From: an uncultured Candidatus Poseidoniales archaeon
Lineage (GTDB): Archaea; Thermoplasmatota; Poseidoniia; Poseidoniales; Poseidoniaceae
Assembly: GCA_964009815.1 (NCBI GenBank)
Contig: CAXGJQ010000002.1
Location: 1 to 34,758, forward strand
DNA: 34,758 bases
Direction: 5' to 3'
Position numbers and translations under genes: made by a program
The notes under the pieces: model-generated
Told to the model about the DNA's origin: nothing
The model's database searches: none
Seen by the model: the letters and a program-made list of their open reading frames with translations, nothing else
Shown: positions 8,711 through 32,985 of the stretch, in pieces
Numbering within the stretch: the first letter of the stretch is position 1
Layout: every line of letters starts with the position of its first letter

Positions 8711-8717
8711 TTTTTTA
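8711..8717 (-). promoter_or_regulatory. Candidate archaeal TATA box (TAAAAAA) for the TSP3-repeat gene
   Basis: The minus strand reads GAGTAAAAAAGAGCG...(33 nt)...ATG(8677). That distance fits a transcript start roughly 10 nt upstream of the ATG. Confidence 0.35.
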
Positions 8718-8863
8718 CTCTGCAAAGATTGCTTATGAGGGTGATGGAACAATGTTCATACAAAACACCGTTCCTTGTTCGCCTCAAGTGAAGAAATCGC
8801 CCCCTCTGCAAAAGGTCATGCGGTGTATTCAAGTCCCTCCCGCGTTGGAGTGAATATGTTCGC

Positions 8864-16027: not shown

Positions 16028-16060
16028 ACCTCAACCCTCAGTCACGCTCACTGTTGAGGT
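16028..16060 (-). other. 8-bp stem hairpin spanning the 20-nt junction between the beta-helix gene stop and the STAND regulator start
   Basis: acctcaac (16028..16035) pairs perfectly with gttgaggt (16053..16060), leaving a 17-nt loop. The stop codon of the upstream gene (16048..16050) sits in the loop/stem and the regulator's ATG (16025..16027) abuts the stem. Confidence 0.4.
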
Positions 16061-19000
16061 GGTTGCTGGTAGTTGGGGTCAGGAACCCACTGGTTGGTCG
16101 CTTGGTCCCAGAGCCATCCCGGGTGTTGGGACGAAGCCGCTGCTGCTTCGACTCCTGGAGCCACCGCTGCTGCTTCTTGTGGAATCGCGGGAGTTTGCTT
16201 GGCCTTGGCCCATGCGTACGGGTCTTCCTCAACGGGGCTGTCATCACCGGTCAGTTCATCCTCATCGGGAATTTCTTCGAATTCAATGAAGAAGAAAGCG
16301 CCCGCTCCAAGAAGGACCAAGACGGCCAAAACGATGAGAATGATGCTGATCACGCCAGAACCTCCGTCATCGCCGCTGGACACCACGATGGCGAATTCTG
16401 CATTATCGGTTTGACCTGCGAATTTGAAGATCTGTCCGTCCATCTCAAAGATGACGTCCGATGAACCTTCAATACCGCTGAGTTGCCCTGCGTTGAGTTG
16501 CATGTTCCATGAACCATCCGAGAGGACACGAGTGGAGTTGAGCTTTGCATTTCCATCGGAAAATCGTGCAATAACGAGACTGCCTGGCAGACCTTCACCT
16601 TGGAATTCGGCAGGGTCATTCACGGTGATATCTCCAGTGTCGGTTCGCTCTACCGTGAACGAAACAGCCCGCACGAGGAAGTTCATTCGCAGCGAGAAGG
16701 CTTTGGATTCTTGGTCATCTTGGGCGTAAACAATCACGCTGTTCAGCGACCAATCGGGTATGCTGGCGGTCGTTTGAGCCATGTAGGACATTGGGTCATA
16801 GGTGAGAACGCCGAGTGGTGTGATGGTAATGAAGTCGTCATAGAAATCATCCTCGATGGTCTCATCATCGTCAAAGACGTAAAATTCGAGGTCATTCCCT
16901 GCAACACCCGTTCCGTCGGGGTCTGAAAAGAATTCAGCGAGGTCAAAGGTCACACCGCCTCCACATCGGTCAAACGAATTCGAGTTCGCATCACAAAAGA
17001 TGGTCCATGTGGAAACCCATCCGGTTTCGTTGAACAGAGGGTCAAGGTTTTCGGCATCCAATGGATTGTTGATGGTCATTCGCCAAACGGATACTTCGGA
17101 ATAATCATCGCCGTCGTAAGCCTTGACGGAAACGGAGTAAACGCTGTCGTGAACCAACTTAGACGTGTCCCAAGTAGCCACCCACGAGCCGTCAATGGCG
17201 AAGTTGGTCACCGGCAGCGGACCATTGTTCAGGACGATACCGTTGGCCAAATCAGTGATTTCAATCTCAACACGGGTCACGAAACCTCCGATGTCCCGAG
17301 CAACCCCAATGATCTTGGTTTCTTCCGAGGCACGAATGGTATCTCCGTCAATGCCGCCAGAGGACTGGTCTTCGGCTCCAATCCAAGAGAGTTGGAGGTT
17401 GGGAGGGATGTTGTCGTTGTTGATGGTAATGGTTCGGGTCTCAACGACACACGCTGATGAATCGTCAATGCAGAAATCGCTGTCAGCAGCCCACACCTCT
17501 ATGGTGTAGTCCCCTGTGGGTAATTCGGAAACCAACCATTCGTACGACCAACTGGTAGAACCCTGCTGGAAGAATTGCTGTTCGAAATCGTTTGGCCCCA
17601 TGATGTGGAACCAAATTTGTTGGACATCGCTGCCGTAAGTTCCCTGATACGGGTCAGAAGCCGTTCCTTGGAAGAGGACCCTACCGTTTTGATGAACACT
17701 ACCTTCCGTGGGGACGTCAACCAAGATGGTTGGCGGGACAAGGTTGAGTTTGTACTGGCGCACCTCAATGGGCGAGTAATCCAAACCGTCGTAGGACCGA
17801 ATACGGAACGTAATGTCGCCCTCACCTTCTGGATGAGCGGCTCCGTCCCATTCGTAGACCCAATCCTTGAACGGATGTGTTTCCATGGTGATTTCACCGT
17901 TGGCACCGGATAAGTCTGAGGCGTAGAACCAATCGCTGGAACCAGGTGGCTGAATCTCAACCCGCTTCACCATTCCGAACTGGGCTTGTTGGGCGGTGTT
18001 GTCATTGGCGTAAGGCCATTTGGCACCGTCCCATGCCTGTCCCGTTATGCGAACAGTCGTGGCGTAGGAATAGCCATCGGGTTCGTTGACCCACACACCG
18101 GGGCGGAGGTTTTCGAGGTTGATGACATCGTCAATCGGTCCAGTGAGTACGTAGGAGAAGTCATCGGTACCACTGCCGAACTTGGAGGCTTCAACGGTAT
18201 AGAACGGGCGCTCTCGGCCATTGATACAGTCAGAGTCATCGCCGTCGACATAGGTATCTCCGTCGTTGTCAATACCGTCTGCGCATGAGTCTTCGTCAAC
18301 GACGACGGGTTGACCAGTTCCATCGTTGGAACCAGGGATGGCTGCGTTCTTATCACCCACGATGTGGTTCCAGTTGCGGTCAAGGAGGAAGTCGGATGGA
18401 AGAGAAACCTCGGGCGTGAAACCAAAGGCGTCCGTGGTCAATTCGTAGAGTGGAAGACCGGTCGAATCCTTGATAATGACCGTGGCACCCTCAACGTTGG
18501 AGTTCTTGGCCTTCACTTGGTATCGCACCAATTCACCCTCACGAACCTGTGAGCCCCAAGCTGTGTTTTGATTTTGAATGTGGATCATTGAGGAATCGAA
18601 GTTTTGCAGGTCAGCAAATGAAAAGACTGTAGCGTTTTCGACAAGTTCCAATGCAAGTGGCATGCCGGTAGGGGGCAAGGCAACGGTTCCGGGAAGTTGC
18701 AAACATTCGTCTTGGACGAACGGACACTCAGCGCCCAGCCAACGGATGTTGACCGGGTAAAGTTCGCCGTATCCAGGAGATGGAATTTGCTCAGATTGCA
18801 CAGTAACTCGGGATTCTGTGACGTTGTAGACTTGAGAAACGCCCGTCCATGAATTCCCAGAGAAGTAGGCGATGGACCCGTATTTGTTACCATAATTGTC
18901 ATCGTGAACACTTACGTTGCCAGCGAATCCACCTTGGGAATCAGCGGTGTTTCGCTGCACGTTGATGAGCGAACCCTTGGCTCGAATGATATCCCCCGTG

Positions 19001-20427
19001 TTATCGGTGATGATGTTGTCAAGGATGGTGGCCGAAGAACGGAACACGTGAACAGCAGGACATGGGAAGTCGCCGTCGTACATTTGGGAGTTGCAGGTAC
19101 CTGAGTTGTTCGAAATGGCGTTGTTAGCGAGGTAAAGGCGAGCAGCCGTAGGTGCGGGCACCTGCCAGCCTTGGTCTTGGTAGTGATATTCACCGATCAA
19201 GACCGGCTCTTTTGCAGTTTCCGAGATGGTGTTGTTTTCAGCGATAACATCCGAGGTTCCGTAAATCCATATGCCGTTCCAACCACCAATGGGACCAATG
19301 TTGTTGTTGTGGAGTTCAACAACTGAGCTCCGAATACCGACACCTGAACCATCCGATGCCCCGGAGATGGTGTTTCCTTCTGCATACACTTTGGCTCCGT
19401 CGTAAGCGGTAATTCCCGCACCCTCTTCTGTGGTGATGTCGTTGTTGTTCACCTCGAGTGTGTGTTCAATGATGCCAGTGGTCTTGAGCGAATTGGTGTC
19501 GACAGCGTTGCACTTTACATCAATTTTTGAATTCGTAAGGGTACCCGAACTTGATTTCATGAGAACGCCGTATGCGTTGTCTTTGATGTCGAGGTTGTCC
19601 ATGTCAATGTAGGAATTCTCGATGTAAATCACTGCACGGCCACCGCCTTGCTGACCACAATCGGCATCGTTGCCCGTAAAGGCGGAATTCTTGACCTCAA
19701 ACGTCGAAAGAATACCTGCTCCTGCGTCATAGGCTCGAACGGCGGCAGCGTCGTATCCCTGTCCGTCAACACCGAGTTCGAAGGTTGAATCGGTGAGGAG
19801 CGGTGAGGCGAAATCTACGGCGATAACGTTGGAGGTATTGATGTCCGTGAAGGTCAGACCTCGAGCGGTTGTGCTTGAACCGTCAAAGACGATGGCACCG
19901 TATTGAACGGATTGAAGGGAAGCAACGTAGATTGGGTAGCCGTAAGCGTTCTCAAAGTGCGCATAGTTGATGGAAGTGACGGCTTGGTCAATGGTGTCTC
20001 GAATGATCAAGCCAGAGCCACACGCCGCATCGGGGTTGTTGAGGACATTGCTGTCGGCGACCAAGCATCGTCCAGTCTTGGTGTAGTCCGTTGGAAGCGA
20101 CCAGATGAAGCGAGCTTGGGACGAAGATGAACCTGCACTTGCACCACAAGCGGCGTCTCCAATGCAGATACCACCCTTCACGTCGATGAATTTCCCGAAC
20201 GGGATGTTGATGGTGGTTCCTGCGTTGACAATGAGCTTAGCACCTTCAGCGACTTCGACATCCCCTTGCAGGTTCATGGTGCCAGACCAGGTCTCGGTGC
20301 CTGTCACGGTACCCTGTGTGGTTTCATTGACGGCTGAGGCGGCGGGAACGCTGACCATCACCATCAGAAGTGACATCATGTAGAGCATCACGAGAGAGAC
20401 GGATTTGGTTCGATTATTTTCAGACAT
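16048..20427 (-). CDS. Surface-anchored protein with right-handed parallel beta-helix (PbH1/NosD-like) repeats, Ig-like domains, C-terminal TM helix and 78-aa cytoplasmic tail
   Basis: The track ORF is 16048..20502. I prefer the ATG at 20427 (MSENNRTKSVSLVMLYMMSLLMVMVSVPAASA/VNE, a clear signal peptide). TATTATAT lies 35 nt upstream of it and GGTGA lies 7 nt upstream. Beta-helix turns are visible, for example NSYIDMDNLDIKDNAYGVLM, NNNDITTEEGAGITAYDGAKVYAEGNTISGASDGSGVGIRSSVVELHNNNIG, ENNTISE, LANNAISNN and LDNIITDNTGDII. Ig-like modules follow. The TM helix GVISIILIVLAVLVLLGAGAFFFI lies at about 16285..16356. Confidence 0.75.
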   Translation of the reverse strand: MSENNRTKSVSLVMLYMMSLLMVMVSVPAASAVNETTQGTVTGTETWSGTMNLQGDVEVAEGAKLIVNAGTTINIPFGKFIDVKGGICIGDAACGASAGSSSSQARFIWSLPTDYTKTGRCLVADSNVLNNPDAACGSGLIIRDTIDQAVTSINYAHFENAYGYPIYVASLQSVQYGAIVFDGSSTTARGLTFTDINTSNVIAVDFASPLLTDSTFELGVDGQGYDAAAVRAYDAGAGILSTFEVKNSAFTGNDADCGQQGGGRAVIYIENSYIDMDNLDIKDNAYGVLMKSSSGTLTNSKIDVKCNAVDTNSLKTTGIIEHTLEVNNNDITTEEGAGITAYDGAKVYAEGNTISGASDGSGVGIRSSVVELHNNNIGPIGGWNGIWIYGTSDVIAENNTISETAKEPVLIGEYHYQDQGWQVPAPTAARLYLANNAISNNSGTCNSQMYDGDFPCPAVHVFRSSATILDNIITDNTGDIIRAKGSLINVQRNTADSQGGFAGNVSVHDDNYGNKYGSIAYFSGNSWTGVSQVYNVTESRVTVQSEQIPSPGYGELYPVNIRWLGAECPFVQDECLQLPGTVALPPTGMPLALELVENATVFSFADLQNFDSSMIHIQNQNTAWGSQVREGELVRYQVKAKNSNVEGATVIIKDSTGLPLYELTTDAFGFTPEVSLPSDFLLDRNWNHIVGDKNAAIPGSNDGTGQPVVVDEDSCADGIDNDGDTYVDGDDSDCINGRERPFYTVEASKFGSGTDDFSYVLTGPIDDVINLENLRPGVWVNEPDGYSYATTVRITGQAWDGAKWPYANDNTAQQAQFGMVKRVEIQPPGSSDWFYASDLSGANGEITMETHPFKDWVYEWDGAAHPEGEGDITFRIRSYDGLDYSPIEVRQYKLNLVPPTILVDVPTEGSVHQNGRVLFQGTASDPYQGTYGSDVQQIWFHIMGPNDFEQQFFQQGSTSWSYEWLVSELPTGDYTIEVWAADSDFCIDDSSACVVETRTITINNDNIPPNLQLSWIGAEDQSSGGIDGDTIRASEETKIIGVARDIGGFVTRVEIEITDLANGIVLNNGPLPVTNFAIDGSWVATWDTSKLVHDSVYSVSVKAYDGDDYSEVSVWRMTINNPLDAENLDPLFNETGWVSTWTIFCDANSNSFDRCGGGVTFDLAEFFSDPDGTGVAGNDLEFYVFDDDETIEDDFYDDFITITPLGVLTYDPMSYMAQTTASIPDWSLNSVIVYAQDDQESKAFSLRMNFLVRAVSFTVERTDTGDITVNDPAEFQGEGLPGSLVIARFSDGNAKLNSTRVLSDGSWNMQLNAGQLSGIEGSSDVIFEMDGQIFKFAGQTDNAEFAIVVSSGDDGGSGVISIILIVLAVLVLLGAGAFFFIEFEEIPDEDELTGDDSPVEEDPYAWAKAKQTPAIPQEAAAVAPGVEAAAASSQHPGWLWDQATNQWVPDPNYQQPPQQ

Positions 20428-20462
20428 CAGCAATTCACCGGTTCTGTCCATGAACGCCACGA

Positions 20463-20470
20463 ATATAATA
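20463..20470 (-). promoter_or_regulatory. Candidate archaeal TATA box (TATTATAT) for the beta-helix surface protein gene
   Basis: The minus strand reads TATTATAT-(35 nt)-ATG(20427). It lies in the most AT-rich intergenic stretch of the window. Confidence 0.4.
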
Positions 20471-20490
20471 CTGCGCCTCATTTGGCAAAA

Positions 20491-20520
20491 AAAGAATATC
20501 ATTAGACTGAAAGAATATCA
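20491..20520 (-). promoter_or_regulatory. Perfect 11-nt direct repeat (plus strand AAAGAATATCA, minus strand TGATATTCTTT) x2 with 19-nt period, just upstream of the candidate TATA box
   Basis: The copies are at 20491..20501 and 20510..20520. A third GAATAT core at 20461..20466 overlaps the TATA candidate. Confidence 0.35.
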
Positions 20521-20627: not shown

Positions 20628-21836
20628 TCAGCATCCCGAAATTGCACGAGATTGACTCAACCAAGCCTCAGCATTGAGAAAGCCATAGCCCCCTCGCTCA
20701 TCATGATTTACTGGGTCAGAAACCAGCGAATCCATGAGCGCCTGTTTGACCTGAATCAAACATGATGCATCGCCCCCAGGTTGAGGTTTGAGTCGTGGTT
20801 GGTCTTCAAGGATCAGGGCGAGGGCGCCGGTGACAAACACCGTGGCATCCGAAGAACCACTGCTTGAATACCAGAGATTGTCTTCACCGGTACTGATGAT
20901 GCGTTCCCCGGGTGCCACGACTTCCGGTTTCATGTGGGGATGTTGACGAGCATCTCCATTGCGGTCGGTGGTATCGCCCATCGATGAATTGGACCAAACA
21001 TTGCCCTCTCGGACCGTTGCGCCGACGGATATCGCCAAGGCTACACTGCCCGGAGAGGCGACATCTCCATCGTCTTCGAGACCATCGTTTCCTGCAGCAG
21101 CCACCACGTAAATTCCTGCATCAGTCGCCTGCCGAGTGGCGGCTGATGAACCACCTTCTAGGTTGCCAGCATCATTAGAACCACCAAGGGACAGCGAAAT
21201 AATGTCGGCATTGAATTCAAACTGACACCAACGAATGGCGTCAGCAACGTCCGAATCAAGGCCCGTGTTTTCACCATCCCCATTGTCTTCCAGCGCTGCC
21301 ACCATGGCGAACGAGACGTTGGGGGCAGCCCCGAATTGGGCACCATCTTGTGAAAGGAGAATGCCGGACATCAAAGTACCGTGAGCTACGGCTCCATAGT
21401 CCAACGGTAGACGAGAAGCACCCACGATGTCCTTGAACGTGATGTCCACGCCGGCGAACGCCTCATGGGTTCCATCGATGCCGGTGTCGACCATGCACAC
21501 TCGAACGCCTTCACCGGTCAGGCCGGCATCTTGTACCCCTCGAATCGAAGTGTCCTCAAAAGCCCACTCTGATTTTGGTGCAGGGAGGTCCACGACGAGC
21601 CACTGATTCTGCCACATCAATACGCTGATGGAAATCAAGAGAGCGAAGAGGACCACACCCGATATCGAAAATCGTTGGCGGTTGTAGCGCATCACCGGTT
21701 CTACCGGGAGCGGAGCCCACCCCATGGTCTCGGCACGCCACTGGTCTTGGAAGCCAATAGCGGCAGGGTCTACGGCCGAAAGAATGCGACGGTCCGACGG
21801 TTCTGGAAGGTATTCCACATCGCGTAGGCCTTCCAT
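20628..21836 (-). CDS. Membrane-anchored subtilisin-family (S8) serine protease
   Basis: 402 aa. The catalytic residues are in canonical order and context: D117 in CMVDTGIDGTH (21486..21488), H152 in AHGTLMSG (21381..21383), oxyanion N250 in AAAGNDG, and S329 in SSGSSDATVFVTGALAL (20850..20852). The N-terminus has a ~55-aa cytoplasmic segment, then a single TM helix (FSISGVVLFALLISISVLMW). There is no room for an I9-type propeptide. Confidence 0.88.
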   Translation of the reverse strand: MEGLRDVEYLPEPSDRRILSAVDPAAIGFQDQWRAETMGWAPLPVEPVMRYNRQRFSISGVVLFALLISISVLMWQNQWLVVDLPAPKSEWAFEDTSIRGVQDAGLTGEGVRVCMVDTGIDGTHEAFAGVDITFKDIVGASRLPLDYGAVAHGTLMSGILLSQDGAQFGAAPNVSFAMVAALEDNGDGENTGLDSDVADAIRWCQFEFNADIISLSLGGSNDAGNLEGGSSAATRQATDAGIYVVAAAGNDGLEDDGDVASPGSVALAISVGATVREGNVWSNSSMGDTTDRNGDARQHPHMKPEVVAPGERIISTGEDNLWYSSSGSSDATVFVTGALALILEDQPRLKPQPGGDASCLIQVKQALMDSLVSDPVNHDERGGYGFLNAEAWLSQSRAISGC

Positions 21837-21900: not shown

Positions 21901-24900
21901 TCAGAACTTGGTTCCGCCTCGGCTACGAGCAGTGCGAACTCCACCGTAGACCACGAGAATGGCCAACAGTGCGATGAGGAGTGTCATCCAAATCGATTCA
22001 CCATCGGCGGTGGATTCGATGTTGTATTCCAAAGCGAAGTCATCATCCGAAGGCTTCGATTCTACGCTGTTCGCTTCCGCTCCCGCCACTTCAACTCGAT
22101 AGTCAAAGCGCTGGTTGCCTTGCATAAAGGTGAGTCCCTCAAAGACGGCGACACCTTCTCCACCGGCTGGAACAGCGATGGATTGGGAAAGTTCAGCGCC
22201 GTTCGGAGGCGTGAGGTAAACAATCACTGAAGGAGCGTCAAGCAAACCTTCGTTCACGATAGGAACACGCACAGCACCGACCTTATCGGCGATGAGGTCA
22301 GATTCAGTGGCAATGCGAGCCGTGTCCAAGGTGAGATAGATCGTGGCCTTCTTGATGCTCACTTCGACTTCTTGACGTTCAACGTTTTCATCCTGGCTGT
22401 TGACGTAGACGGTGAGGTCAAAGTCGCCTTCCGTAAAGGACTCTGGAGCAAAGACGGTGAACTGTTGTGTTCGCGTCTCACCCTTGTTAAGGGTCAACGT
22501 CGAAGCCATCGGCGTGACGGACCAGTCCTCGGGGATGCCGCTTTCAAGCAATTCAATGGTAAAGGTGTCCTGTCCGTTTCCATCGTTGGTCAACGCAAAG
22601 GAGAACTGACGCTCAACCAGGGCAGACATGCCCAATTCCTCAGTAGCATCCGATACGGTGAAACCGAACGATTGTGGAACAAACACCTTGACAGAGCCTT
22701 GAGATGATTCTCCCAAGTCCGTCTCGAGACGCAACGTCATACGGTGGCCGTTGGTGAGATGCCAAGCATCTGCGACGTCAGGCAGCGTGATTTGCACCTT
22801 CACGGTCGTACTGAGTACGGCCTCTGTTGAATTATCACCAATTCCAAGAGCCACGTTGATGGTGTCCTCGTAAGCACCTTGGCCATCATCAGCCGAGGCG
22901 TTCCAAAACTGAACATTCCATAGGTCTGAATCTTGAGCCAAGCCCATCTCGCCCTCGACTGAGAAGATATCCATCGTCTCGGTTCCGTTGTAAACCACTT
23001 CGTAATCAAACGTAATGACCGAGTAAACCGATTCGTTGGATGAGGAAACAATCGCCTCAATTTCACCATCTACGGCGTTGAGCAGTGTACCATCCGTCAA
23101 GGAATCAGCACTGAATGAGATATCAAGGGCTGAGTTGACGCGGCGGTTGAAGTTCAACGTGGCAGAGATGGTTGAGTCAGCGTTGATGGTGGTCGTTTGG
23201 CCACCAAAGTATTCCATTTCGAGTTGAGAACTGTGTTGAACGGTCATGAACTCACCATCAAACGAAACACCGCCTTCAGGGAAGAGTTCCCGGAGTTGAC
23301 CAGAGGCAGGTACATCCATCATCCAAGCCATGTCATCAAAGGTGACCTCAAGCTCGACGGCCTCTTGAATCATGGAGAAACCATCGCTATCAGCACCAGC
23401 ATGGTGCTCATTTTGCTCAATGTCAGTCCAAGCCGTTGCGAGTTCAACGAATCCACCAAGGGCCATGGTCATGCTGATGTTGCCGCCGTTAGCGACGCTC
23501 GCATCAAGCAATCCAACAGCAACTCCTCCACCATTCGGTCCAAGGTTGGTTTGGGAAACCACAACGACCCATTCACCGGGTTGGACACTTGCCGACCATT
23601 CAAGGGTAGTACCGTTCATCGTACCACTTACTTCAACTGGCTCTCGTTCAACACCGGCGACGGGGTAAAGCACAATGCTTGCACCAACAAGCCGGTCAGC
23701 ATCAAGTTGGTCAGTAACCGTACCTTCTGCATCGACCAAACCAGCGGTCACCTCTATGTCAGTGGAATCAGGACTGTCGTGGACGGTGTATCCGGTTTGG
23801 TTGACGGTCTCGTAGTACACGGTCTCAAATCCTTCTTTCTCAACGGTCACGTTGTAGACATCACGGATTGGAACAAAGACTCGCCAGACTCCTTCATCAT
23901 CGGTGGCCACCGTGGTGGAGAATTCAGAGTTGTTGTCGCCAACAATCGTGACGTTCATCCCTGGCAGACCTTCACCGAAGCTTGGCACACTGTTGTTGTC
24001 AAGGTCCCAGTAGACCTTACCACCAATTTCGACTTCCAAGACCGCGTAAACGGGATCCAAGGTAAGGGAATTGTTCTCATCGGCGAGGTCGGTGGTGAAT
24101 GGAGCATCACTGGTGTCCATGAACCATGATTTCGTTCCAATGGTACGATTGAAGTAGAAACTCCATGTTCCCGGCATCAGTAGCTCTGTTGAGTTCCCTT
24201 CTGCATCGGTTCGGTCAAAGGTGATGTTGCCAAATCCATCATGGCTCACCGCAGTGACCGTCATGTCGCTCAGTGGCGACTCGGTCACGGCTTCCAACAA
24301 TTGCATAGAAACCTCTACGCTGAGGCTTGTGGTCATGTTAAGATTCAATCGGTCTGAGTTTGCATCAACCGTGAGGGGTTGGCGCAGCGTCTCCGTATTG
24401 TCACCGTTGGCGAACGGAGCCACAATGACCAACCACTCACCTGCAGGCACATAGGCGGCGAAACTACCGTTCTCATCTGACCCCAAATTGAACCATTCAT
24501 CATCGGCTTCGTTGTAGAGCAAGAACTCGTTGGCAATACCTTCGTTGGTGGTGTTAAAGAGCGTACCAGAAACAAGGTAGGTGTTCTTCAATGCCACGTC
24601 TACTGGGTCTTCGATGGCATCGAGACTGATGCGAATCGCATCGAAGAACTGCTCACCGACCAAGTCGTAATCTGTGGCGTTCTCATCACTGGCTGCCGTT
24701 CGGTTGAACACGAGGTCATAGCCACCGGGTGTCAAAGACACAGTGATGATTCCTGGTTCAGTGTAGTCTTCGGCCGTGTAGTAAATGCTGTCTTGGTTTT
24801 CATCGATTGGCCTCAGGCTGAAGGCAGGAGTGGCCATGGTTCCATTCTCAAAGGTGCCGTCCTCGGCAGCGTTGAGGTAAACATGCATTACCACATCGAT

Positions 24901-27273
24901 GGCTTCTGGCTCTGCGATGAGTTCAATCGATGAAAGTGGCTCAGTATTTGAGCGATTGATGACCAAGTCCTCAACCGTTGAAACGTTGAGGCGTTCGTCG
25001 GAAACGGTCAGGTCCCATACTCCGTTGGGAAGGTCGAGGGCGAACTCTCCAAACTCGTTAGCGATGGTGGTCCATATCAAACCTGCATCGTTTGTAGCGA
25101 TGATTTCAGGAGCCTCCCACATCGGGAAACTTGAATCCCATCGGGTGCTGTTCTCGTAGAGGTGAACCACTCCGTTAAGGAGGGTGGTAGGTTGAATGTA
25201 GAGCATTCCAAGGTCAGTGTCTGTGCCCGTCTCAACGGCCACAAGGGCCCCGTATCCGCGATTGGTGACAACGCTCTCGGTGGTCAGGTGGTATGTGAAA
25301 CCGGAGGGAACACGCACGGAGAAGTATCCCGTGAGATTGGTGACCGCAGCGAACTCAAGATTGTCTGAAACAAAGTTCACGGTCAAGCCATTCGCTGGTT
25401 GCGTGGTTTGTTCTCGGTTTTCTTCCGGTGTTTCATCGTACCAGGTGTTCCATTCCTCAACCGTGACGCCGGGGTAGTTTCGCATTGAACCGTTGATGTA
25501 AGCGGCTTGAGCATAGGTGACGTCCTTAGCAAGGTCCTCAGTACCGGGCACAAGTTCGATTTGGTCGAAGAGCACGAACTCAGGGTTCACATCGTCGCGA
25601 ATGTCCCAAACACCGAACAGAAGTTCAGCATACAAGTCTCCATTTTCATCGCTTGTGACGTTGATTGGGTCGAGCAAGTCAATTTCGTTTTGGAACGTAA
25701 TGGTCCGGTTTGCCACATCAAAGAGCGGTTCTTGTGTCAATGGGTCCACCGGTGAAACAAGGGTCAAAGTGACGTCCACTGTGTCGGGCACATTGAGGTC
25801 CAACGTGATGTTGGTTGTGTCCGTAATGACAAAGATGGACTCGTTAAAGTCGTACCATCCGTCGTTGTCAACGTCCCCGCGGTAGTAGTAGTCTCCTGGC
25901 GGGATTGGGCCGTAAGAGAAGTTCCCATCTTCATCGGTTGGAATCATAACGGCAAACTCTTCGCCAAGGTCAACATCAACAAATTCAATGGTTTGGTTTG
26001 CCATTGCATCGCCGTGCATGTCCTTGAGGGTGTCCTTGAAAATGGCACCAGGCATGGTCATGGCAAGATCGTAAGTTGGGTCAATACCGATTTCAACCGG
26101 GTCTGGCAAAAGAACTTCCTTTCCATTAGCGAGCTGAGCAATCATGTTGTAGGTACCAGGAAGAAGACCCGTCTTGTAGAACGAACCAGGTTCAACCATT
26201 GGGCCAGAGAAGGTTCCAACACCGATGAACAATCCGGTTCCGTTGAACGTTCCAGTTCCTTCGAACAATCCTGCACCTTCAAGGGTTTCACCCTGTCCAG
26301 CATCGGCATCACCGTAGGTCCGGCTGAGCGTCGATGTGCCTTCTGAAGTGAAGGTACCCATGGCGTCAACCGTGCCTTCAAGGCGATAGGTTGGTGTGTC
26401 ACCGCTGTCATCGATGAGACAGAAGGTTTCATTCACCGGCATCACGGGATTGGATTGATTATCTGAATCACAAGCAACCACGTCTGATGGTTCCACCCAA
26501 GAGGCTTCAAGCACACCGTTTCCGGACCAAGTGCCGTTGGCAGAGAAGGAGCGCTCGTTGCCAATATCACGGGTAAATTCGCCAATGAAATTGCTGGCAA
26601 GGGCAATGCCTTCGCTGTCAAAGGAGCCATTCTCCACCAGTGTAGCTTCACCGGTTCCTTGGAGGATTCGTGATTCATCTGATGTGAACGAACCACTCGT
26701 GGTTTCGACGGTGTAGTTGTCGGTCATGGACCAAATGTTTCGCAAGATGAAGGTTGTTTCAGCGATAGGTTCGCCGTTGAATTCTTCGTCTCCGGACCAC
26801 ACGACGGTACCCGAAACACCGCTGCTGTCAACGGTTATGTCGAGTTCGTCATCCATGTCGACCATGCGGTTTGCTTCGTCGGCAGTGATGTTGAGTTGAG
26901 ATTCACCCAACCACGTCATGTTGGCAACTTCGCCCAACAAAGCGGTGATTTCGTTGACGACTCGGTCATCGTTGGTTTCGGTTAGGATATCGCTGAGTCG
27001 CTCACCATAGGAACCGTCGCGGATGTTATCTCGTGCGACCGTAGGGTCAAAATCACCTGCAAAGGCGGACACACGAATGCGGCCTGCTGGGGCGAGGAAA
27101 TCGTAATTTCCTTCTTCATCAGCGTCAACGAATCCAATAGGGACCCAGTAAGTGTCCTCATCAAGGTCTTCGCTGCCTTCACCGGAGAAAGCATCGCGCT
27201 CAATCAACAATCGGACACCAGAGAGCCCTTCTCCGTTATCGCCCATGGTTACTTGACCGGTCAATTCTGCACC
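21901..27273 (-). other. C-terminal ~1,790-aa extracellular extension of the AglB protein: array of CarboxypepD_reg/Ig-like modules, CARDB/NEW3-like modules, terminal TM anchor
   Basis: At least nine recurrences of the D-x-x-G-x-(F/Y)...P-x-G-x-(Y/W) beta-sandwich signature: DEEGNYDFLAPAGRIRV, TDEDGNFSYGPIPPGDYYY, SDENGDLYAELLFGVWDI, NLTGYFSVRVPSGFTYHL, NEFGEFALDLPNGVWDLTV, SDENGSFAAYVPAGEWLVIV, TDAEGNSTELLMPGTWSFYF and TDDEGVWRVFVPIRDVYNVTV. CARDB-like segments are FSFALTNDGNGQDTFTIELL...GETRTQQFTVFAP and VRVPIVNEGLLDAPSVIVYL. The terminal helix WMTLLIALLAILVVYGGV lies at 21937..21990, followed by RTARSRGGTKF. Confidence 0.65.
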
Positions 27274-30200
27274 GGGGTAGTACTTCAGAATCTTCACGAG
27301 GGTATTCGTTGATTGAATTTGGTCTTCAGGAGCTTCACTGTACCAGTTGGCGATGACAAAGTGGTTCATCATGGCACCAGGCAGGGGCAGAGCGTTGGTC
27401 AAAATCGTACCAGGCGATCCGGATTGTCCGAAATGCTGTGATGGTTGAGGGTTGCTGGAACCGGCATCGAGTCCGAGGGTGGACGCACCATAGCCGACGT
27501 AGGTCCTTGCCACCATCGTGTCAAAGAAGGCAGGATTGTGGTCAACACGGACGTCCTCGATTTGGAGCATATCAATGTCAGCACCAGCCTGTTGGTTGAG
27601 GAAATCCTTCTGCATTGCATCGTCAACCTCTTCTCGAGTCATCTCATCTTGGAAGTCTCCACGAACGGTTTCGTAAACTTCGTTCATGTATGTGGTGATG
27701 TCCTGTCCTGCCAAGATGGTCGGTGCACCAAAGATACCCATGGGTTGACCACGGTTGTAATTGGAGTCCGCCGTGTATCGACCGGCGCGAGGGTAAAGTC
27801 GGTCGTCGATGGCGAAGTAGCGAATATCGTGGTCTCGAGTGATGGTTTCACCAGGAGCACCTTCGTAATCTTGCACCTTGTAGGGGCTGTTAAGATTGAT
27901 GAGGTCGTTGTAGAGGTCGTGGATGTTGTAGACGGGGTGGGCATCCATTGCAGATGTGAGAAGTTGCGTTGCCAAGGCCAAACGGGCGTTCTTTCGGTGG
28001 ATGGACGTCGACACTGAGAGGTACTCATCCAACAAATCATCGGTATACCAGTACTCACCAATGATGGTGTGGCTGCGACCTTCAACGGTTTCTTCAGACG
28101 TTCGCACGTTGTTGTTGAAGGTGATGTCGGCTTGCTCCATTGAGCTCCAAGCATCACCCTCACAGGAATTGGAGAGGGCATCAGTGCAGGGAATCGCTTC
28201 ACCGTCTTTGTAAATCTTGTAGACCTTGTTGTCGTCAAAGATACCGGCGACATGGGTGTATCCTTCGGCCATGACCACGTTTCGATTTGACTTGACCACG
28301 TTGAATGAGCGCTCTTCAATGAATTCAATCATCGACTCATCAAAGGTGAGTTGCATGGTGTTGAATTCAGCCAGTTGGTCGTCGTCAAGGTACTTGTCCA
28401 TGACGTTCATGAAAGGTTCCGTGAATTGATGATTTACGCCTTCAGTAGCGTAGGCTCGGTCGCCTTCTGAAAGTTGCCAGATGAACATGGCTGTCAAGTC
28501 ATCCTGGTTGCGTGCAAGAAGCATGTTCCCTGTGGCAGGGATACCTGACTGGAAGTTGTCTGAAACCGATGGGTGTTCGCCGGTGGCCAGTGCTTGGAAA
28601 CCATAGTCCCACCATGAGACAAAGGCAGGTTTCTCTGAATACGCCATATCAGCGTCCTGATTCGCCAACCAGTCGTAGGCCGCATTCCAGCCGTTGTCGT
28701 TGAAGGACGAACCGAAGCTACCCAAATACCGACGTCCATCGTACGTACTGCTGTCAAGAATCGAAAAGCCAAGTCCGTCGAAACGAAGGATATCGGGCAT
28801 GATGTTGTAGATCTTCTCATCAATTTCGCTTTCTTGGTTGGAGGTGCCGGGGATGGCCGAGTCCAAACCGTAGGTGGCTTGTTGCCCGAAAATCATGATC
28901 ATCACGAGGAAGACCGCAGAGAATTGCGGTGTACGCCATACGGCTTTGCGAGCACCGGAGATGCGGTCAGCCGGCGTGCGAATACCGAATTTCTTCCACG
29001 AACGAACCAAGCGACCCCAATCAGCCCACTTCCAGAACGCCATGATTCCAGCCGCTCCAAGAATGGCCATGATGGGCGTAGCGTTGAACATGAAACGAGC
29101 AGCGTTCCAAGCCATGAACGTGGCTGCAAAGACCCAGACACCAAACACCAAAGCGGTGCCATTTCGATGCCGAAGACCTCGCCAAAGAAGTCCGCCGCCC
29201 ATGATGAGAGCGAGCAAAAACGTGATCGGTCCAAAGGAGGCGAAGAGTTGAGCACGGTTCGGTGCATTCGCTTCAGCAACCGTGCCGAAAATCTTGGTCT
29301 TGGTGAAGTAGCCGCTGCCGGTGAACAGGACATCCCAGGCGTTGGAAAGTTCCAACGTCTTGAGGACGTAAAGGATGGCAAAGAAGACGGTAGCAACGGC
29401 GGTGAGTGTGCCGAGAACGAGCAACCAAGGCTTGTCTCGGAAACCGGTTGTCACGTAGGCAATGGCCAGCGTGAATCCAAAGATGAACAAGAAGGGTTGC
29501 AGTCCTGTTGGGTCAAACACCAAATTGAATTGCGGGTGTGCATAGAATGGTAGAACCATCAACAAAATGGTGGTCAACATCACGAGGAACATCACGCTCA
29601 AGGTGGTTGAATCACGGCGGCGGAACATGTTCAGGGCCACTTGCAGGGCGTAAGCCAAGAAGAGGATCGAAGGACCGACGACGAACCCTTTCCATCCGAG
29701 GGCGACGATTCCAAACGCGACACCAGCAAGGGCCGCGTTCGCCATGGCAGCTTGTCGATGCTGGGCAACGTCGTTGAAAGCACGCACAAAGGACATCGGG
29801 TGAGCCGATGTTGTCTTGGTTATGCGAGCTGAGCCGGCATACTTGACCGCACGGAGCCAGTACATGAAACCGATCGAGATGAACAACATCACGAAGGCAT
29901 CGTGGTCAGCCAGAGCCCACGTGGAGTGGGTGACGTGAGCAGGCATGAAGGCGATGAGCCAGGCAGCCAGAACGCCAGCGCCTTTGCCGAAGTGGTCCTT
30001 GGCCATGATGGCGATGGGGAACACGGTCAAAGCTCCGTAGATGGCTGGTAGAGCAAGCATGCTCCACCAAACCGCATCTTCGGGATTTGAGAGGAAGGGT
30101 TCCAACACCATAGCACCAATGGCCATCGACCAGGTGAAGAGCGGGGGACGTGGGTTGATGCCGCCGACTGGATAGAACCGGTCGGCGTCAAACACCAGGT

Positions 30201-31464
30201 GGGCATTGTTGGCGAGGATGTAGTCCACGACGCGCTTCATGTACCAAGGGTCAGAACCACCGGTCATGTCCCAGTTACCCGTTCCAAAAGCATTCATGGA
30301 TGGAACCGCGTACCACTGTACACGGATAGCCAGACCAATGAGGAAGGCCAAACCGACCATCATACCTGCTCCGTGGGCTCGAAGGAAGAGGCGCGCCTGA
30401 GAGGGCTCGTGCTCTCCGAGGTTGGCCCAACCGCCGTAGCGTTCATGGTTCCCAATGGAATAGATTCCAACACTGAGGAAGAAGGTGATGGCAAGCCAAA
30501 TCAAGGCACCCCACGTTCCGTCAAGATCCTCGTTGTACCAAATTCCTGCTTCAAACCAAGCAGCCACTTGGTAGAGCGTCCACATCGAACCAACGAACAT
30601 GGCACGGGTGTACCATCGCTCCGCCACCATACCGGCGACGATAAGGGCAACAACACCGGTCAAGAAAGCGCTCCAATAGCCGGCATAGCCGTGGTATCCG
30701 TTTTCCGTAGTGATGCCAAGTTGGTCGATCACATCGACGCTGTTGAAGTGCCAAAGTGAACCTGCAAAAACGACGACCCACATGCTGAGCGCACCCATCA
30801 ATGGGAGAGCAGAGCGATTGAATCCGTTTGAGTGGCCGAGGAACGAGAACCATCCCTCTTCTCCCGAGGGATTGATTGTACCTCGAGCAAGCACACCGGC
30901 CAACAATCCAGCCGCCGTGGTCATGGTCCAGTAGGCAAAGAAGACGTACGCGGTGGCCTGGCGTTCCAGATTCATCGTGGAAACAAGCTGTCCGCTTTCC
31001 ATGCTGTACGTTGAAGGGAGGGCAGCGTAGGTGTCTCCAGCTGCCGCTATGGCCAGCCAAAATCCAATGGCTGAGAACGTCATAGCCGTTCTCCACTCGT
31101 GGCGTCCACGAAGGTCAAGATTTGACCCAAACACGACGAGCAAGGCGAACATCAAGGCCGCAACCGCATCGACGTCAGCAAAAGCGTACAGCAATTCAGC
31201 GCCGACAAGAGCAAACACCAAAACGCCGAGGGAAAGGGTAGAGGTGGAAAGACCAGGCTGAGATTCCTGAACGATGCGTGGCACCAAAGCCAGCATGCTA
31301 GCGACAGCGACGACGAGCATCGGCATCATGTTGTTCAATGTCAAGTCGTATTCAATGCCCACGACTCGTGTGGTGGCAAGAGCGAGCAGCACGGCCAGAG
31401 GTGCAAGCAGCAACCCCATCACGGCACTTGGCTGACTCGCCTTCATATCCATTTGTTCATCCAT
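21901..31464 (-). CDS. aglB: Giant AglB/STT3-type oligosaccharyltransferase fusion protein (3187 aa)
   Basis: One uninterrupted ORF. The WWDYG catalytic motif is at codons 951-955. A polytopic membrane region lies upstream, with an acidic first external loop (GGSDPWYMKRVVDYILANNAHLVFDADRFYPVGGINPRPPLF) typical of STT3/AglB. About 10 extra TM helices precede the core. About 1,790 residues of repeated Ig-like modules follow it, and the protein ends in a TM helix and a basic tail. Confidence 0.88.
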   Translation of the reverse strand: MDEQMDMKASQPSAVMGLLLAPLAVLLALATTRVVGIEYDLTLNNMMPMLVVAVASMLALVPRIVQESQPGLSTSTLSLGVLVFALVGAELLYAFADVDAVAALMFALLVVFGSNLDLRGRHEWRTAMTFSAIGFWLAIAAAGDTYAALPSTYSMESGQLVSTMNLERQATAYVFFAYWTMTTAAGLLAGVLARGTINPSGEEGWFSFLGHSNGFNRSALPLMGALSMWVVVFAGSLWHFNSVDVIDQLGITTENGYHGYAGYWSAFLTGVVALIVAGMVAERWYTRAMFVGSMWTLYQVAAWFEAGIWYNEDLDGTWGALIWLAITFFLSVGIYSIGNHERYGGWANLGEHEPSQARLFLRAHGAGMMVGLAFLIGLAIRVQWYAVPSMNAFGTGNWDMTGGSDPWYMKRVVDYILANNAHLVFDADRFYPVGGINPRPPLFTWSMAIGAMVLEPFLSNPEDAVWWSMLALPAIYGALTVFPIAIMAKDHFGKGAGVLAAWLIAFMPAHVTHSTWALADHDAFVMLFISIGFMYWLRAVKYAGSARITKTTSAHPMSFVRAFNDVAQHRQAAMANAALAGVAFGIVALGWKGFVVGPSILFLAYALQVALNMFRRRDSTTLSVMFLVMLTTILLMVLPFYAHPQFNLVFDPTGLQPFLFIFGFTLAIAYVTTGFRDKPWLLVLGTLTAVATVFFAILYVLKTLELSNAWDVLFTGSGYFTKTKIFGTVAEANAPNRAQLFASFGPITFLLALIMGGGLLWRGLRHRNGTALVFGVWVFAATFMAWNAARFMFNATPIMAILGAAGIMAFWKWADWGRLVRSWKKFGIRTPADRISGARKAVWRTPQFSAVFLVMIMIFGQQATYGLDSAIPGTSNQESEIDEKIYNIMPDILRFDGLGFSILDSSTYDGRRYLGSFGSSFNDNGWNAAYDWLANQDADMAYSEKPAFVSWWDYGFQALATGEHPSVSDNFQSGIPATGNMLLARNQDDLTAMFIWQLSEGDRAYATEGVNHQFTEPFMNVMDKYLDDDQLAEFNTMQLTFDESMIEFIEERSFNVVKSNRNVVMAEGYTHVAGIFDDNKVYKIYKDGEAIPCTDALSNSCEGDAWSSMEQADITFNNNVRTSEETVEGRSHTIIGEYWYTDDLLDEYLSVSTSIHRKNARLALATQLLTSAMDAHPVYNIHDLYNDLINLNSPYKVQDYEGAPGETITRDHDIRYFAIDDRLYPRAGRYTADSNYNRGQPMGIFGAPTILAGQDITTYMNEVYETVRGDFQDEMTREEVDDAMQKDFLNQQAGADIDMLQIEDVRVDHNPAFFDTMVARTYVGYGASTLGLDAGSSNPQPSQHFGQSGSPGTILTNALPLPGAMMNHFVIANWYSEAPEDQIQSTNTLVKILKYYPGAELTGQVTMGDNGEGLSGVRLLIERDAFSGEGSEDLDEDTYWVPIGFVDADEEGNYDFLAPAGRIRVSAFAGDFDPTVARDNIRDGSYGERLSDILTETNDDRVVNEITALLGEVANMTWLGESQLNITADEANRMVDMDDELDITVDSSGVSGTVVWSGDEEFNGEPIAETTFILRNIWSMTDNYTVETTSGSFTSDESRILQGTGEATLVENGSFDSEGIALASNFIGEFTRDIGNERSFSANGTWSGNGVLEASWVEPSDVVACDSDNQSNPVMPVNETFCLIDDSGDTPTYRLEGTVDAMGTFTSEGTSTLSRTYGDADAGQGETLEGAGLFEGTGTFNGTGLFIGVGTFSGPMVEPGSFYKTGLLPGTYNMIAQLANGKEVLLPDPVEIGIDPTYDLAMTMPGAIFKDTLKDMHGDAMANQTIEFVDVDLGEEFAVMIPTDEDGNFSYGPIPPGDYYYRGDVDNDGWYDFNESIFVITDTTNITLDLNVPDTVDVTLTLVSPVDPLTQEPLFDVANRTITFQNEIDLLDPINVTSDENGDLYAELLFGVWDIRDDVNPEFVLFDQIELVPGTEDLAKDVTYAQAAYINGSMRNYPGVTVEEWNTWYDETPEENREQTTQPANGLTVNFVSDNLEFAAVTNLTGYFSVRVPSGFTYHLTTESVVTNRGYGALVAVETGTDTDLGMLYIQPTTLLNGVVHLYENSTRWDSSFPMWEAPEIIATNDAGLIWTTIANEFGEFALDLPNGVWDLTVSDERLNVSTVEDLVINRSNTEPLSSIELIAEPEAIDVVMHVYLNAAEDGTFENGTMATPAFSLRPIDENQDSIYYTAEDYTEPGIITVSLTPGGYDLVFNRTAASDENATDYDLVGEQFFDAIRISLDAIEDPVDVALKNTYLVSGTLFNTTNEGIANEFLLYNEADDEWFNLGSDENGSFAAYVPAGEWLVIVAPFANGDNTETLRQPLTVDANSDRLNLNMTTSLSVEVSMQLLEAVTESPLSDMTVTAVSHDGFGNITFDRTDAEGNSTELLMPGTWSFYFNRTIGTKSWFMDTSDAPFTTDLADENNSLTLDPVYAVLEVEIGGKVYWDLDNNSVPSFGEGLPGMNVTIVGDNNSEFSTTVATDDEGVWRVFVPIRDVYNVTVEKEGFETVYYETVNQTGYTVHDSPDSTDIEVTAGLVDAEGTVTDQLDADRLVGASIVLYPVAGVEREPVEVSGTMNGTTLEWSASVQPGEWVVVVSQTNLGPNGGGVAVGLLDASVANGGNISMTMALGGFVELATAWTDIEQNEHHAGADSDGFSMIQEAVELEVTFDDMAWMMDVPASGQLRELFPEGGVSFDGEFMTVQHSSQLEMEYFGGQTTTINADSTISATLNFNRRVNSALDISFSADSLTDGTLLNAVDGEIEAIVSSSNESVYSVITFDYEVVYNGTETMDIFSVEGEMGLAQDSDLWNVQFWNASADDGQGAYEDTINVALGIGDNSTEAVLSTTVKVQITLPDVADAWHLTNGHRMTLRLETDLGESSQGSVKVFVPQSFGFTVSDATEELGMSALVERQFSFALTNDGNGQDTFTIELLESGIPEDWSVTPMASTLTLNKGETRTQQFTVFAPESFTEGDFDLTVYVNSQDENVERQEVEVSIKKATIYLTLDTARIATESDLIADKVGAVRVPIVNEGLLDAPSVIVYLTPPNGAELSQSIAVPAGGEGVAVFEGLTFMQGNQRFDYRVEVAGAEANSVESKPSDDDFALEYNIESTADGESIWMTLLIALLAILVVYGGVRTARSRGGTKF
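28600..28614 (-). other. WWDYG catalytic motif of the AglB/STT3 domain
   Basis: The plus strand reads accatagtcccacca, whose reverse complement tgg tgg gac tat ggt encodes WWDYG. It is in frame with the ATG at 31464 (codons 951-955). Confidence 0.9.
30340..31464 (-). other. N-terminal extra polytopic membrane module (about 10 predicted TM helices) fused ahead of the AglB core
   Basis: Codons 1-375 contain about ten hydrophobic stretches of 18-24 residues, for example VMGLLLAPLAVLLALATT, MMPMLVVAVASMLALV, LSLGVLVFALVGAELLYAF, AVAALMFALLVVFGS, AMTFSAIGFWLAIAAAG, AYVFFAYWTMTTAAGLLAGVLA, LPLMGALSMWVVVFAGSLW, SAFLTGVVALIVAGMVA, MFVGSMWTLYQVAAWF and GALIWLAITFFLSVGIYSI. They precede the helix that corresponds to AglB TM1 (GAGMMVGLAFLIGLAIRVQWY). 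TM calls were made by eye. Confidence 0.6.
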
Positions 31465-31610: not shown

Positions 31611-32885
31611 TTATTGGATGGCTCGATGGGCAATATCCGTACGGAAATGACCACCCTCAAGGTCAATGTTCGACAGCAAATCATAGGCCATTTCCTGAGT
31701 GGTTTTGAGGTCAATCCCGAGGGCTGTGCACGAAAGTACACGCCCGCCGGAAGCGATGAAATCTCCACCCTCGTTCTGTGAAACTCCAGCAAAATTTACC
31801 CATGCTGTCCCGTAGTTTGCCGAGGCAGAAAGCTCAGCCAACCCACCGAGCAATCGGCCTTTCTTGGGAGAAGCAGGATAGCCCTCGGAGGCGAGAACAA
31901 CGGTGACGGCCGAACCGCCGTGAAGATGAAGTTCAACTTCGTGCAATCCATCGGTGGCAGCTCCATGAAGGAGGTCGTACATGTCGGTGCGGATGAGGGG
32001 CAGCGTGACTTGGCATTCTGGGTCGCCGAACCGGACGTTGAATTCCACCACGTACGGATCGTCGTGTTGGTCGATCATCAAACCGATGAACAGAACACCG
32101 CGGTAGGGGACCTCAAGCGCCGACAAATGTTGATGCATTGGCTCAACGATTCGGGTGATGATTTTCTCGTGCACGGACGGGGAGACCACAGGGGCGGGGC
32201 AATAGGCACCCATTCCACCTGTGTTGGGACCTTTATCGCCATCGTAGGCCCGCTTGTGGTCTTGGCTGGCGGGGAGCGCCCTGTACGCACCACCGTCCAT
32301 GACGACCAACATGCTGGCTTCTTCTCCGGGGAGGAAAGCCTCGAGGAGAACAAAACCATCGGTTTGTATTGAGGATTCGATGAACGTCCTTGCTTCGCGA
32401 CGGTCTTCGGTTACAACCACGCCCTTACCGCCAGCCAACACATCTCGCTTGACGACCCATGGATGGCCAGCATAGGTCTCCAGTGCTGCATCCACATCGC
32501 TATCTGCATCAAGCCGCAGGAACGCTGCAGTCGGCACACCTGCCGCTTGCATCGTTTGCTTGGCATGGAGTTTGGAGCCTTCCAAGTGAGCCAAGGCCGC
32601 GACAGGACCAAAACAAGCGAGGCCACGAGCAGCGCATGCATCGGCCAATCCCGCACATAACGGCGCTTCAGGTCCGACCACCACAAGGTCCGCTTCAAGG
32701 TGTTCAAATAACCCCACCAACGATTCCGTGGTCATTTCATTGGCATGGTTCGTGGCCAGTTGGGCTGTACCGGCGTTCCCGGGAACACAGTGAAGGGAAC
32801 CGACTCGAGGCGATGAATCAAGGGACAGGCAAAGGGCATGTTCGCGGCCACCGCTTCCAACCACGACAACCGTAGCTTTGTCCAT
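31611..32885 (-). CDS. purD: Phosphoribosylamine--glycine ligase (GAR synthetase)
   Basis: 424 aa. The N-terminal VVVVGSGGREHALC...PGNAGTA is the classic PurD signature. An ATP-grasp core follows. The C-terminal GGRVLSCTALG...AYDLLSNIDLEGGHFRTDIAHRA matches the GARS C-domain consensus. Confidence 0.95.
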   Translation of the reverse strand: MDKATVVVVGSGGREHALCLSLDSSPRVGSLHCVPGNAGTAQLATNHANEMTTESLVGLFEHLEADLVVVGPEAPLCAGLADACAARGLACFGPVAALAHLEGSKLHAKQTMQAAGVPTAAFLRLDADSDVDAALETYAGHPWVVKRDVLAGGKGVVVTEDRREARTFIESSIQTDGFVLLEAFLPGEEASMLVVMDGGAYRALPASQDHKRAYDGDKGPNTGGMGAYCPAPVVSPSVHEKIITRIVEPMHQHLSALEVPYRGVLFIGLMIDQHDDPYVVEFNVRFGDPECQVTLPLIRTDMYDLLHGAATDGLHEVELHLHGGSAVTVVLASEGYPASPKKGRLLGGLAELSASANYGTAWVNFAGVSQNEGGDFIASGGRVLSCTALGIDLKTTQEMAYDLLSNIDLEGGHFRTDIAHRAIQ

Positions 32886-32985
32886 ACAACGCTGTGCCCC
32901 CCGGCGATGAATAAGACCTTCGTGGAGGCTATTTGTGCGTACGAGGCGGAAGAACCCTTATCCACCACGAATTTTTGTTCTTACC

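Follow-up and report, generated by a model that had tools for sequence, protein, structure and literature searches.

The described long forms of the archaeal oligosaccharyltransferase AglB are about 590-1,050 amino acids (aa) in length and start with the first transmembrane helix (TM1). They are treated as compact single-subunit enzymes. Those of Archaeoglobus fulgidus (AfAglB-L; 3WAJ, 3WAK, 5GMY, and 7E9S), Pyrococcus, and Haloferax possess a GT-C/STT3 domain with an aspartate in loop 1, a DxD/DxH motif, a TIXE-type motif, and WWDYG, and an extracellular domain past the last helix. In the eukaryotic oligosaccharyltransferase (OST), the catalytic STT3 is found with luminal beta-sandwich subunits, the ribophorins and OST48, that end in a single helix. 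Archaeal S-layer glycoproteins, e.g., csg of Haloferax volcanii (7PTP), are acidic chains of beta-sandwiches with many N-glycosylation sites and C-terminal anchoring by membrane or lipid.

Marine Group II (MGII), or Candidatus Poseidoniales, is among the most abundant groups of archaea in the surface ocean and is uncultured. To our knowledge, the cell envelope of MGII is essentially uncharacterized. The window analyzed here is a stretch of 34,758 nucleotides from an uncultured member of this order (contig CAXGJQ010000002.1 of assembly GCA_964009815.1). Positions 21901..31464 of the reverse strand (stop codon 21901-21903) hold a gene of 3,187 codons, the giant AglB. Judged by its profile matches and motifs, the gene codes for an AglB-type oligosaccharyltransferase that is equipped for catalysis (GT-C, CAZy family GT66). 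All coordinates below are on the reverse strand unless stated otherwise.

The giant AglB has the domain, the motifs, the extracellular domain past the last helix, and the single-subunit character of the long archaeal AglBs, which are its best matches in both sequence and fold. Ahead of its GT-C/STT3 core (aa 366 to ~1490) is a membrane module of 9-10 helices that is specific to the lineage. Past the core, the same polypeptide continues as a ~1,700-aa beta-sandwich ectodomain and goes back to the membrane via a helix at its C-terminus, which bears a cytoplasmic basic tail. Unlike the long archaeal AglBs, it thus has 365 extra N-terminal residues, an insert of ~250 aa beyond WWDYG, and ~1,700 further extracellular residues with a second anchor. 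The enzyme belongs to a known family; what appears to be undescribed is the giant architecture with two anchors, together with its phylogenetic breadth.

One gene throughout the Poseidoniales

A sequence-only reading of the window had proposed a single uninterrupted open reading frame (ORF) with an STT3/AglB core. The frame does run unbroken from ATG to stop, and its Pfam STT3 match is above the cut-off. A collinear, unbroken ORF of 3,167-3,238 aa is present in 48 independent Poseidoniales metagenome-assembled genomes (MAGs). These orthologues are 47-94% identical to the window protein and can be aligned to its residues 1-3187. Alignment gaps make up ~1% in every region, and length is constant within 2%. 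The scan covered one genome per GTDB species and returned 80 loci, without exception in Poseidoniales MAGs; the remainder of the 80 are mostly cut by contig ends or masked bases. At least 280 genome hits are available. In homology searches with three partial queries of the giant AglB, the closest database proteins were likewise from Candidatus Poseidoniales.

A frame of this length could be an artefact of assembly or sequencing that fuses a normal aglB to adjacent genes, and a few relatives are indeed split. Two of them have frameshifts in nanopore assemblies (loci L001 and L002), and two have one in-frame TAG each (L003 and L086). These exceptional breaks are non-homologous and are located inside domains, at mutually unrelated positions, and homology resumes in frame beyond them. 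The same unbroken frame is found in 48 independent assemblies from various studies and assemblers. A fusion artefact is excluded by these uninterrupted orthologues, and the chance left to it is negligible. The comparison also disposes of the missed frameshift, stop, or chimeric join against which the sequence-only reading had advised a check. The splits were considered as a conserved gene boundary as well, and this was rejected because the breaks are at unrelated positions.

The two TAG codons (L003:13813-13815 and L086:9908-9910) have homology in frame on both sides. The one in L086 stands where a Tyr is conserved. Both are probably nonsense alleles or errors within a 9.5-kb gene.

A 3,148-aa cluster has 47% identity. 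One of its members is labelled Candidatus Thalassarchaeaceae, and the architecture therefore spans both Poseidoniales families. The giant AglB is an order-wide single syntenic orthologue across both.

Long AglBs are also found outside of the order. A filter-free search with residues 366-1400 against 1.84 billion cluster representatives gave 797 matches, and two length classes were defined from the best 150. Class 1 is made up of Poseidoniales proteins of 3,146-3,228 aa with a core that starts at about residue 344-409. Class 2 is composed of more than 80 clusters of 2,028-2,775 aa that are 28-37% identical in the STT3 core, which starts at about 20-150. Its named members are from marine MAGs of 'Thermoplasmata' or 'Candidatus Thermoplasmatota', e.g., MCL4356568.1 and MFA5772382.1. 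Nearly all full-length members of both classes have WWDYG and a loop of the GGSDxYY type, and end in a helix followed by a basic tail. Class 2 proteins also have a sequon-rich arm, of about 1,100-1,500 aa. Unlike the giant AglB, they have no N-terminal extension, are located in another neighborhood, and in some cases have PGF-CTERM-like ends. A 2,098-aa representative occurs as one gene in 14 of the 15 members that are listed for its cluster.

The survey of AglB length thus returned 3,167-3,238 aa in Poseidoniales and 2,000-2,800 aa in other Thermoplasmatota. The protein had been singled out as unusual from the window sequence. The length is real and unprecedented, but it is not a peculiarity of one genome, as it is order-wide and accompanied by a larger Thermoplasmatota set. 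Full-length copies are already annotated in GenBank and IMG under automatic names such as 'STT3 domain-containing protein' (MGY8754428.1, 3,174 aa), 'hypothetical protein', and 'asparagine N-glycosylation enzyme membrane subunit Stt3'. Class 2 members are named carboxypeptidase regulatory-like domain protein, GT39 protein, or dolichyl-diphosphooligosaccharide-protein glycosyltransferase. No published description was found to match this annotation: the searched literature, with subscription journals outside the search, contained no account of the giant AglB or of the MGII envelope, and a prior mention is possible.

The STT3 core and the membrane module ahead of it

The STT3/AglB membrane domain is located at aa 366-890 (28795..30369). 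Over aa 392-710 the protein scores 51.8 bits with Pfam STT3 (PF02516), for which the cut-off is 24.5. The best-matching NCBIfam model is archaeo_STT3 (TIGR04154), at aa 369-987 with E = 3e-50, and a profile of the core matches AfAglB-L (3WAJ/5GMY) with E = 4e-13.

The aspartate of loop 1, the DxD/DxH motif, and WWDYG are found at the catalytic places of the AfAglB-L alignment. External loop 1 contains GGSDPWY (30241..30261), where D405 is aligned to the catalytic D47 of AfAglB-L and is invariant in 25 of 25 orthologues. The acidic stretch GGSDPWYMKRVVDYI...DADRFYP that was noticed in the window sequence is indeed there, at aa 402-432. D520-H521-D522 (29899..29907), the divalent-cation DxD/DxH motif, is aligned to D161-H-H163 and is invariant. 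External loop 5 contains an invariant T728-V-A-E731 (29272..29283), which is taken to be the TIXE/SVSE-type motif by its position and pattern, from knowledge of the family, and not by a scored alignment. WWDYG is at aa 951-955 (28600..28614), as first read from the codons; it is aligned to the WWDYG of AfAglB-L and is invariant among orthologues.

The AlphaFold model of aa 301-1500 is poor, with a mean predicted local distance difference test (pLDDT) score of 52 and values <50 in the WWDYG region. Compared to the PDB using Foldseek, the top 18 matches of this model are all oligosaccharyltransferases (AglB, STT3A/B, yeast Stt3, and PglB), and the best is AfAglB (E = 3.5e-11). STT3 is thus confirmed by Pfam and NCBIfam profiles, by the AfAglB-L alignment, and by fold. 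The STT3 identity of the core is solid because the Pfam match, the AfAglB-L profile alignment, and the OST matches in Foldseek agree. The core is also the most conserved part of the protein, with a mean identity to the window protein of 0.79 in the membrane domain and 0.82 around WWDYG. The STT3 profile, the invariant motif positions, the fold matches, and this conservation point to an active enzyme.

The extracellular catalytic region, aa 891-1490 (26995..28794), was delimited by the identity profile. Its C-terminal boundary near 1400-1500 is uncertain and rests on a weak alignment to the peripheral domain of AfAglB-L. Between WWDYG and the next conserved block there is a less conserved insert of ~200-250 aa (about 1001-1190/1250). 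Mean identity is 0.60 across aa 1001-1250 and 0.79 across aa 1251-1400. The conserved block, IRYFAIDDRLYPRAG...GIFGAPTIL at aa 1214-1251 (27712..27825), contains the invariant residues D1220-x-x-L1223...G-I1244-F-G-A-P, which are conserved in both length classes. In the 2,000-2,800-aa relatives the matching block is IRYFAVDSRLFP...GIFYAP, and the pattern common to both classes past WWDYG is IRYFA(I/V)D(D/S)RL(Y/F)P...GIF(G/Y)AP. This block is tentatively assigned as the DK/MI-motif region, in which a DK, DM, or MI motif completes the +2 Ser/Thr pocket. A profile search of the PDB found no sequence match between the 1185-1500 block and any solved structure.

A catalytically dead STT3 part, retained as the membrane anchor of a giant adhesin, would suit a DK/MI motif that lacks a confident assignment. 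It would also suit two scores below cut-off: 171.5 bits against 450 for the archaeo_STT3 subfamily (archaeosortase A system-associated), of which the protein is therefore not a member, and the score of Pfam AglB_core-like. The chance given to a dead anchor is nevertheless very slim. Apart from DK/MI, every catalytic motif is invariant both in orthologues with as little as 47% overall identity and in relatives with ~30%. Conservation is higher in the core than in the arm, and the arm is constant in length and domain order, unlike adhesin repeats.

Ahead of the core is the N-terminal extension, aa 1-365 (30370..31464). Hydropathy averaged over 49 orthologues places 9-10 membrane helices within residues 1-340. 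Residue 5 of AfAglB-L (3WAJ) aligns with position 359 of the core profile, and ~365 residues therefore lie ahead of the canonical TM1, close to the ~375 residues of extra helices estimated from the window sequence. The extension is almost gap-free, with a mean identity of 0.60, and has invariant polar residues (E282, W284, T286, R287, G344-G345-W346-N348, and R358). It has no Pfam match even at E <= 10 and no match in a PDB profile search. Its homologues are fragments of the same gene only, and it is specific to Poseidoniales. An origin by duplication, either from one half of STT3 or within the extension itself, was considered and rejected (hhalign probability <=0.5%).

The extracellular arm

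The sequence-only reading had noted a multi-helix region and a soluble domain after WWDYG, and the layout holds. The STT3 helices occupy 364-865 and are followed by 2,289 residues (866-3154) with zero hydrophobic segments. This extracellular stretch is acidic, with 391 D+E against 97 K+R, and has invariant cysteine pairs. It ends at a membrane helix, 3155-3178, and a basic tail, RTARSRGGTKF (21904..22002 for helix and tail). The second anchor claimed for the protein is therefore real as a hydropathy feature. The basic residues lie beyond the last helix. The STT3 C-terminal domain is outside of the cell and the chain ends in a helix; therefore, double anchoring and a very large external arch are predicted. 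The last residue is Phe in every class 1 orthologue (...RF, ...KF, or ...PF; codon 21904-21906 in the window; P0079-P0092), which points to a conserved C-terminal signal.

The arm proper is the C-terminal ectodomain, aa 1491-3150 (22015..26994). It had been described as ~1,790 residues of Ig-like repeats. The size is about right, at ~1,700 aa past the AglB-like part; the repeats are instead divergent beta-sandwich domains. Internal repeats are weak and ancient: hhalign gives a probability of >=80% to only three distinct pairs of segments, in 6 of the 378 comparisons between sequence windows. Three families had been named for the arm. Pfam CarboxypepD_reg is above its cut-off at aa 2497-2555, NEW3 is a weak match only, as are SpaA-like, CarbopepD_reg_2, and choice-of-anchor-T (Pfam/NCBIfam), and CARDB is a marginal match in a PDB profile search of the whole protein, which found nothing else beyond the AglB core.

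The AlphaFold2 (AF2) model of aa 1491-2690 is all-beta, with pLDDT of 70-88 from about residue 1800. Its Foldseek matches are Gram-positive pilins, adhesin stalks, and macroglobulin domains. Mean identity of the arm to the window protein is 0.50-0.68. A repeat-type giant adhesin is not indicated, as no varying tandem repeat number is seen and length stays at 3,167-3,238 aa in 48 species. With ~1% gaps and weak internal repeats, the architecture is fixed, unlike that of a variable adhesin. The arms of class 1 and class 2 can be aligned weakly and partially (20-27% identity), with their order kept. A stand-alone family that was fused later was considered as the source of the arm and rejected, since a search with aa 1990-3187 matched nothing but pieces of this gene from Poseidoniales.

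The arm is rich in N-X-S/T sequons. It contains 40, compared to 17.1 +/- 3.6 in shuffled sequences (the highest of 2,000 shuffles has 29). Sequons are absent from the soluble region 891-1490, where 4.5 +/- 1.9 are expected. Sequons are thus enriched about 2.4-fold in the fused arm while the soluble domain is depleted. The same is observed across 49 orthologues, with a mean of 44 in the arm against 18 expected and 1.2 in the soluble region against 4.6. The arms of 84 class 2 proteins have a mean of 29 sequons against 12.5 expected; their soluble domains, for which rough boundaries were used, are not depleted. Sequon asparagines in the arm are more conserved than other asparagines (0.74 vs 0.43; p = 8e-7), and all 49 orthologues have a sequon at N1525, N1643, and N1678. 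The arm is probably N-glycosylated. With 40 sequons against 17 expected, it is itself the strongest candidate substrate of the enzyme.

The arm is predicted to be an extracellular, multi-beta-sandwich, sequon-rich polypeptide, which is the description of a surface glycoprotein. The all-beta AF2 model, the matches to pilins and adhesin stalks, and the P[GS]F tails of 9 of 96 long relatives agree with this. The likeness to archaeal S-layer glycoproteins extends to the beta-sandwich chain, the acidity, the many N-glycosylation sites, and the C-terminal anchoring. Unlike them, the surface part of the giant AglB is covalently continuous with the transferase.

The P[GS]F tails are each followed by a helix and basic residues. 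C-termini of the PGF-helix-basic kind, which are like those of archaeosortase substrates, are found in P0102, P0111, P0120, P0126, P0134, P0167, and P0187 (2,200-2,700 aa). The tail of P0102 is above the Loki- and Heimdall-CTERM cut-offs and scores 21.6 against the PGF-CTERM cut-off of 24.5. In those lineages, a lipid may anchor the distal end of the arm, as it does in S-layer glycoproteins.

The arm could alternatively be an accessory module of the enzyme, similar to the luminal beta-sandwich subunits of OST. It would capture unfolded acceptors, hold them, or put them in order close to the Sec exit or the active site. Its permanent fusion and tightly constant length would fit this, and so would the position of its best-conserved stretch, 1401-1800 (identity 0.68), beside the catalytic domain. 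There is also a weak Pfam match to a NOMO1-like beta-sandwich, and the topology, with luminal beta domains and one C-terminal helix, resembles that of ribophorin and OST48. The layout of eukaryotic OST is similar in this respect, but there the beta-sandwich parts are distinct polypeptides. Neither a PDB profile search nor Foldseek found the arm to be similar to OST accessory subunits in sequence or fold, and no such subunit is among the 50 Foldseek matches listed (56 have E <= 0.001). The strong enrichment of sequons at conserved positions is more in keeping with a glycoprotein on display than with the surface of a chaperone, and 1,700 aa far exceeds any accessory subunit. An accessory role is therefore considered unlikely.

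The favored reading, held with somewhat better than even confidence, is that of an active AglB with a glycosylated, doubly anchored envelope arch. The protein would span the membrane at both of its ends and display a fixed-length acidic arch outside of the cell. The arch would be heavily N-glycosylated, with neighboring AglB molecules as the likeliest catalysts, and the same molecule may also modify it during translocation. The arch would most likely be a structural glycoprotein element of the envelope, either a glycocalyx or an S-layer-like coat, and would hold the transferase embedded in the surface layer. The enzyme part would still serve other N-glycoproteins of the cell, e.g., pilins and large surface proteins.

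Several points weigh against the glycosylated arch. The core model is poor, above all around WWDYG, and it is unreliable at the DK/MI motif, which lacks a confident assignment. Foldseek matches the arm only weakly to the S-layer protein of Haloferax (E = 6e-4, probability 0.25). The tail of the window protein matches neither PGF-CTERM nor a related sorting signal, and glycosylation of the arm is deduced from sequons alone. A bolder form of the glycosylated arch makes the giant AglB the principal envelope glycoprotein of MGII, a self-glycosylating coat whose doubly anchored arches would make up the outer layer of the cell. The 2,000-2,800-aa relatives would act likewise in other marine Thermoplasmatota that lack a wall, and the N-terminal module would handle the lipid carrier, e.g., by flipping or recycling. 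This bolder form is regarded as decidedly unlikely.

Neighboring genes and the MGII envelope

The giant AglB is part of a conserved gene order: purD, giant AglB, S8 subtilase, a beta-helix protein of ~1,470 aa, and a STAND/TPR protein. The order is the same in short-read and long-read assemblies. The upstream synteny marker purD (31611..32885; Pfam GARS_N/A/C) is at the same position in L001-L004 and L086. Downstream, the S8 subtilase gene (20628..21836) is syntenic throughout Poseidoniales.

The subtilase raises the possibility of a polyprotein, in which the arm is cut off after membrane insertion, perhaps by this protease, to leave a normal-sized AglB and a separate surface glycoprotein with a C-terminal anchor. 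In each of the Poseidoniales loci that were inspected, an S8 gene comes after the giant gene. Sortase-type C-terminal signals in some distant relatives also suggest that the end of the arm can be processed like that of a surface protein. However, no cleavage motif or low-conservation linker is seen, and identity is 0.74-0.80 across 1351-1450. The S8 protein of the window has no obvious signal peptide. The 2,098-aa relative has the same fusion in a housekeeping neighborhood, unlike that of the window, with no subtilase neighbor. Cleavage into two products is thus improbable, and an arm that stays joined to the transferase is preferred.

Two large proteins are encoded farther along the reverse strand. 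The beta-helix/Big_7 surface protein (1,484 aa; 16048..20502) is syntenic and has 10 sequons against 13.3 expected, which is not an enrichment. The 1,941-aa TSP3-like protein (2927-8752) matches a bacterial TSP3 repeat and is the only sequon-rich one of the two, with 31 against 14.9 expected. It is likely another heavily N-glycosylated surface protein, as judged by this excess. The sequence-only reading had proposed that the enzyme might be tethered to giant substrates encoded next door; the strongest candidate substrate is the arm. Between them is an 841-aa protein (13502-16027) with an N-terminal helix-turn-helix domain, a STAND/AAA_16 NTPase domain, and TPR repeats, which is syntenic in L003, L085, and L086.

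Three consecutive genes on the forward strand (9709-13501) encode proteins of 361, 744, and 159 aa with N-terminal hydrophobic segments. The 361- and 744-aa proteins match DUF7289 below cut-off, and the 361-aa protein also matches the archaeal type IV pilin N-terminal domain below cut-off. These genes look like a pilin-like operon, and their products are plausible AglB substrates. At the edges of the window, an open frame runs off the right end at about 32960-34758 on the forward strand (at least 616 aa), with a signal-like start, MRTQKPVAALILALLMLGLPLAAAQ, and an acidic, E/D-rich end. Another runs off the left end on the reverse strand (1-900; 300 aa).

The finding explains why these genes are frequently fragmented or misnamed in MAG annotation, e.g., as 'carboxypeptidase regulatory-like domain protein', 'GT39 protein', or 'hypothetical protein'. 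A whole order uses an AglB of 3,100-3,200 aa and related Thermoplasmatota use forms of 2,000-2,800 aa, which amounts to an undescribed architectural class of oligosaccharyltransferase. The protein would be a natural single-chain analogue of the eukaryotic layout of a catalytic subunit plus luminal beta-sandwich partners. For MGII, the giant AglB is a concrete candidate for an envelope component with a built-in substrate.

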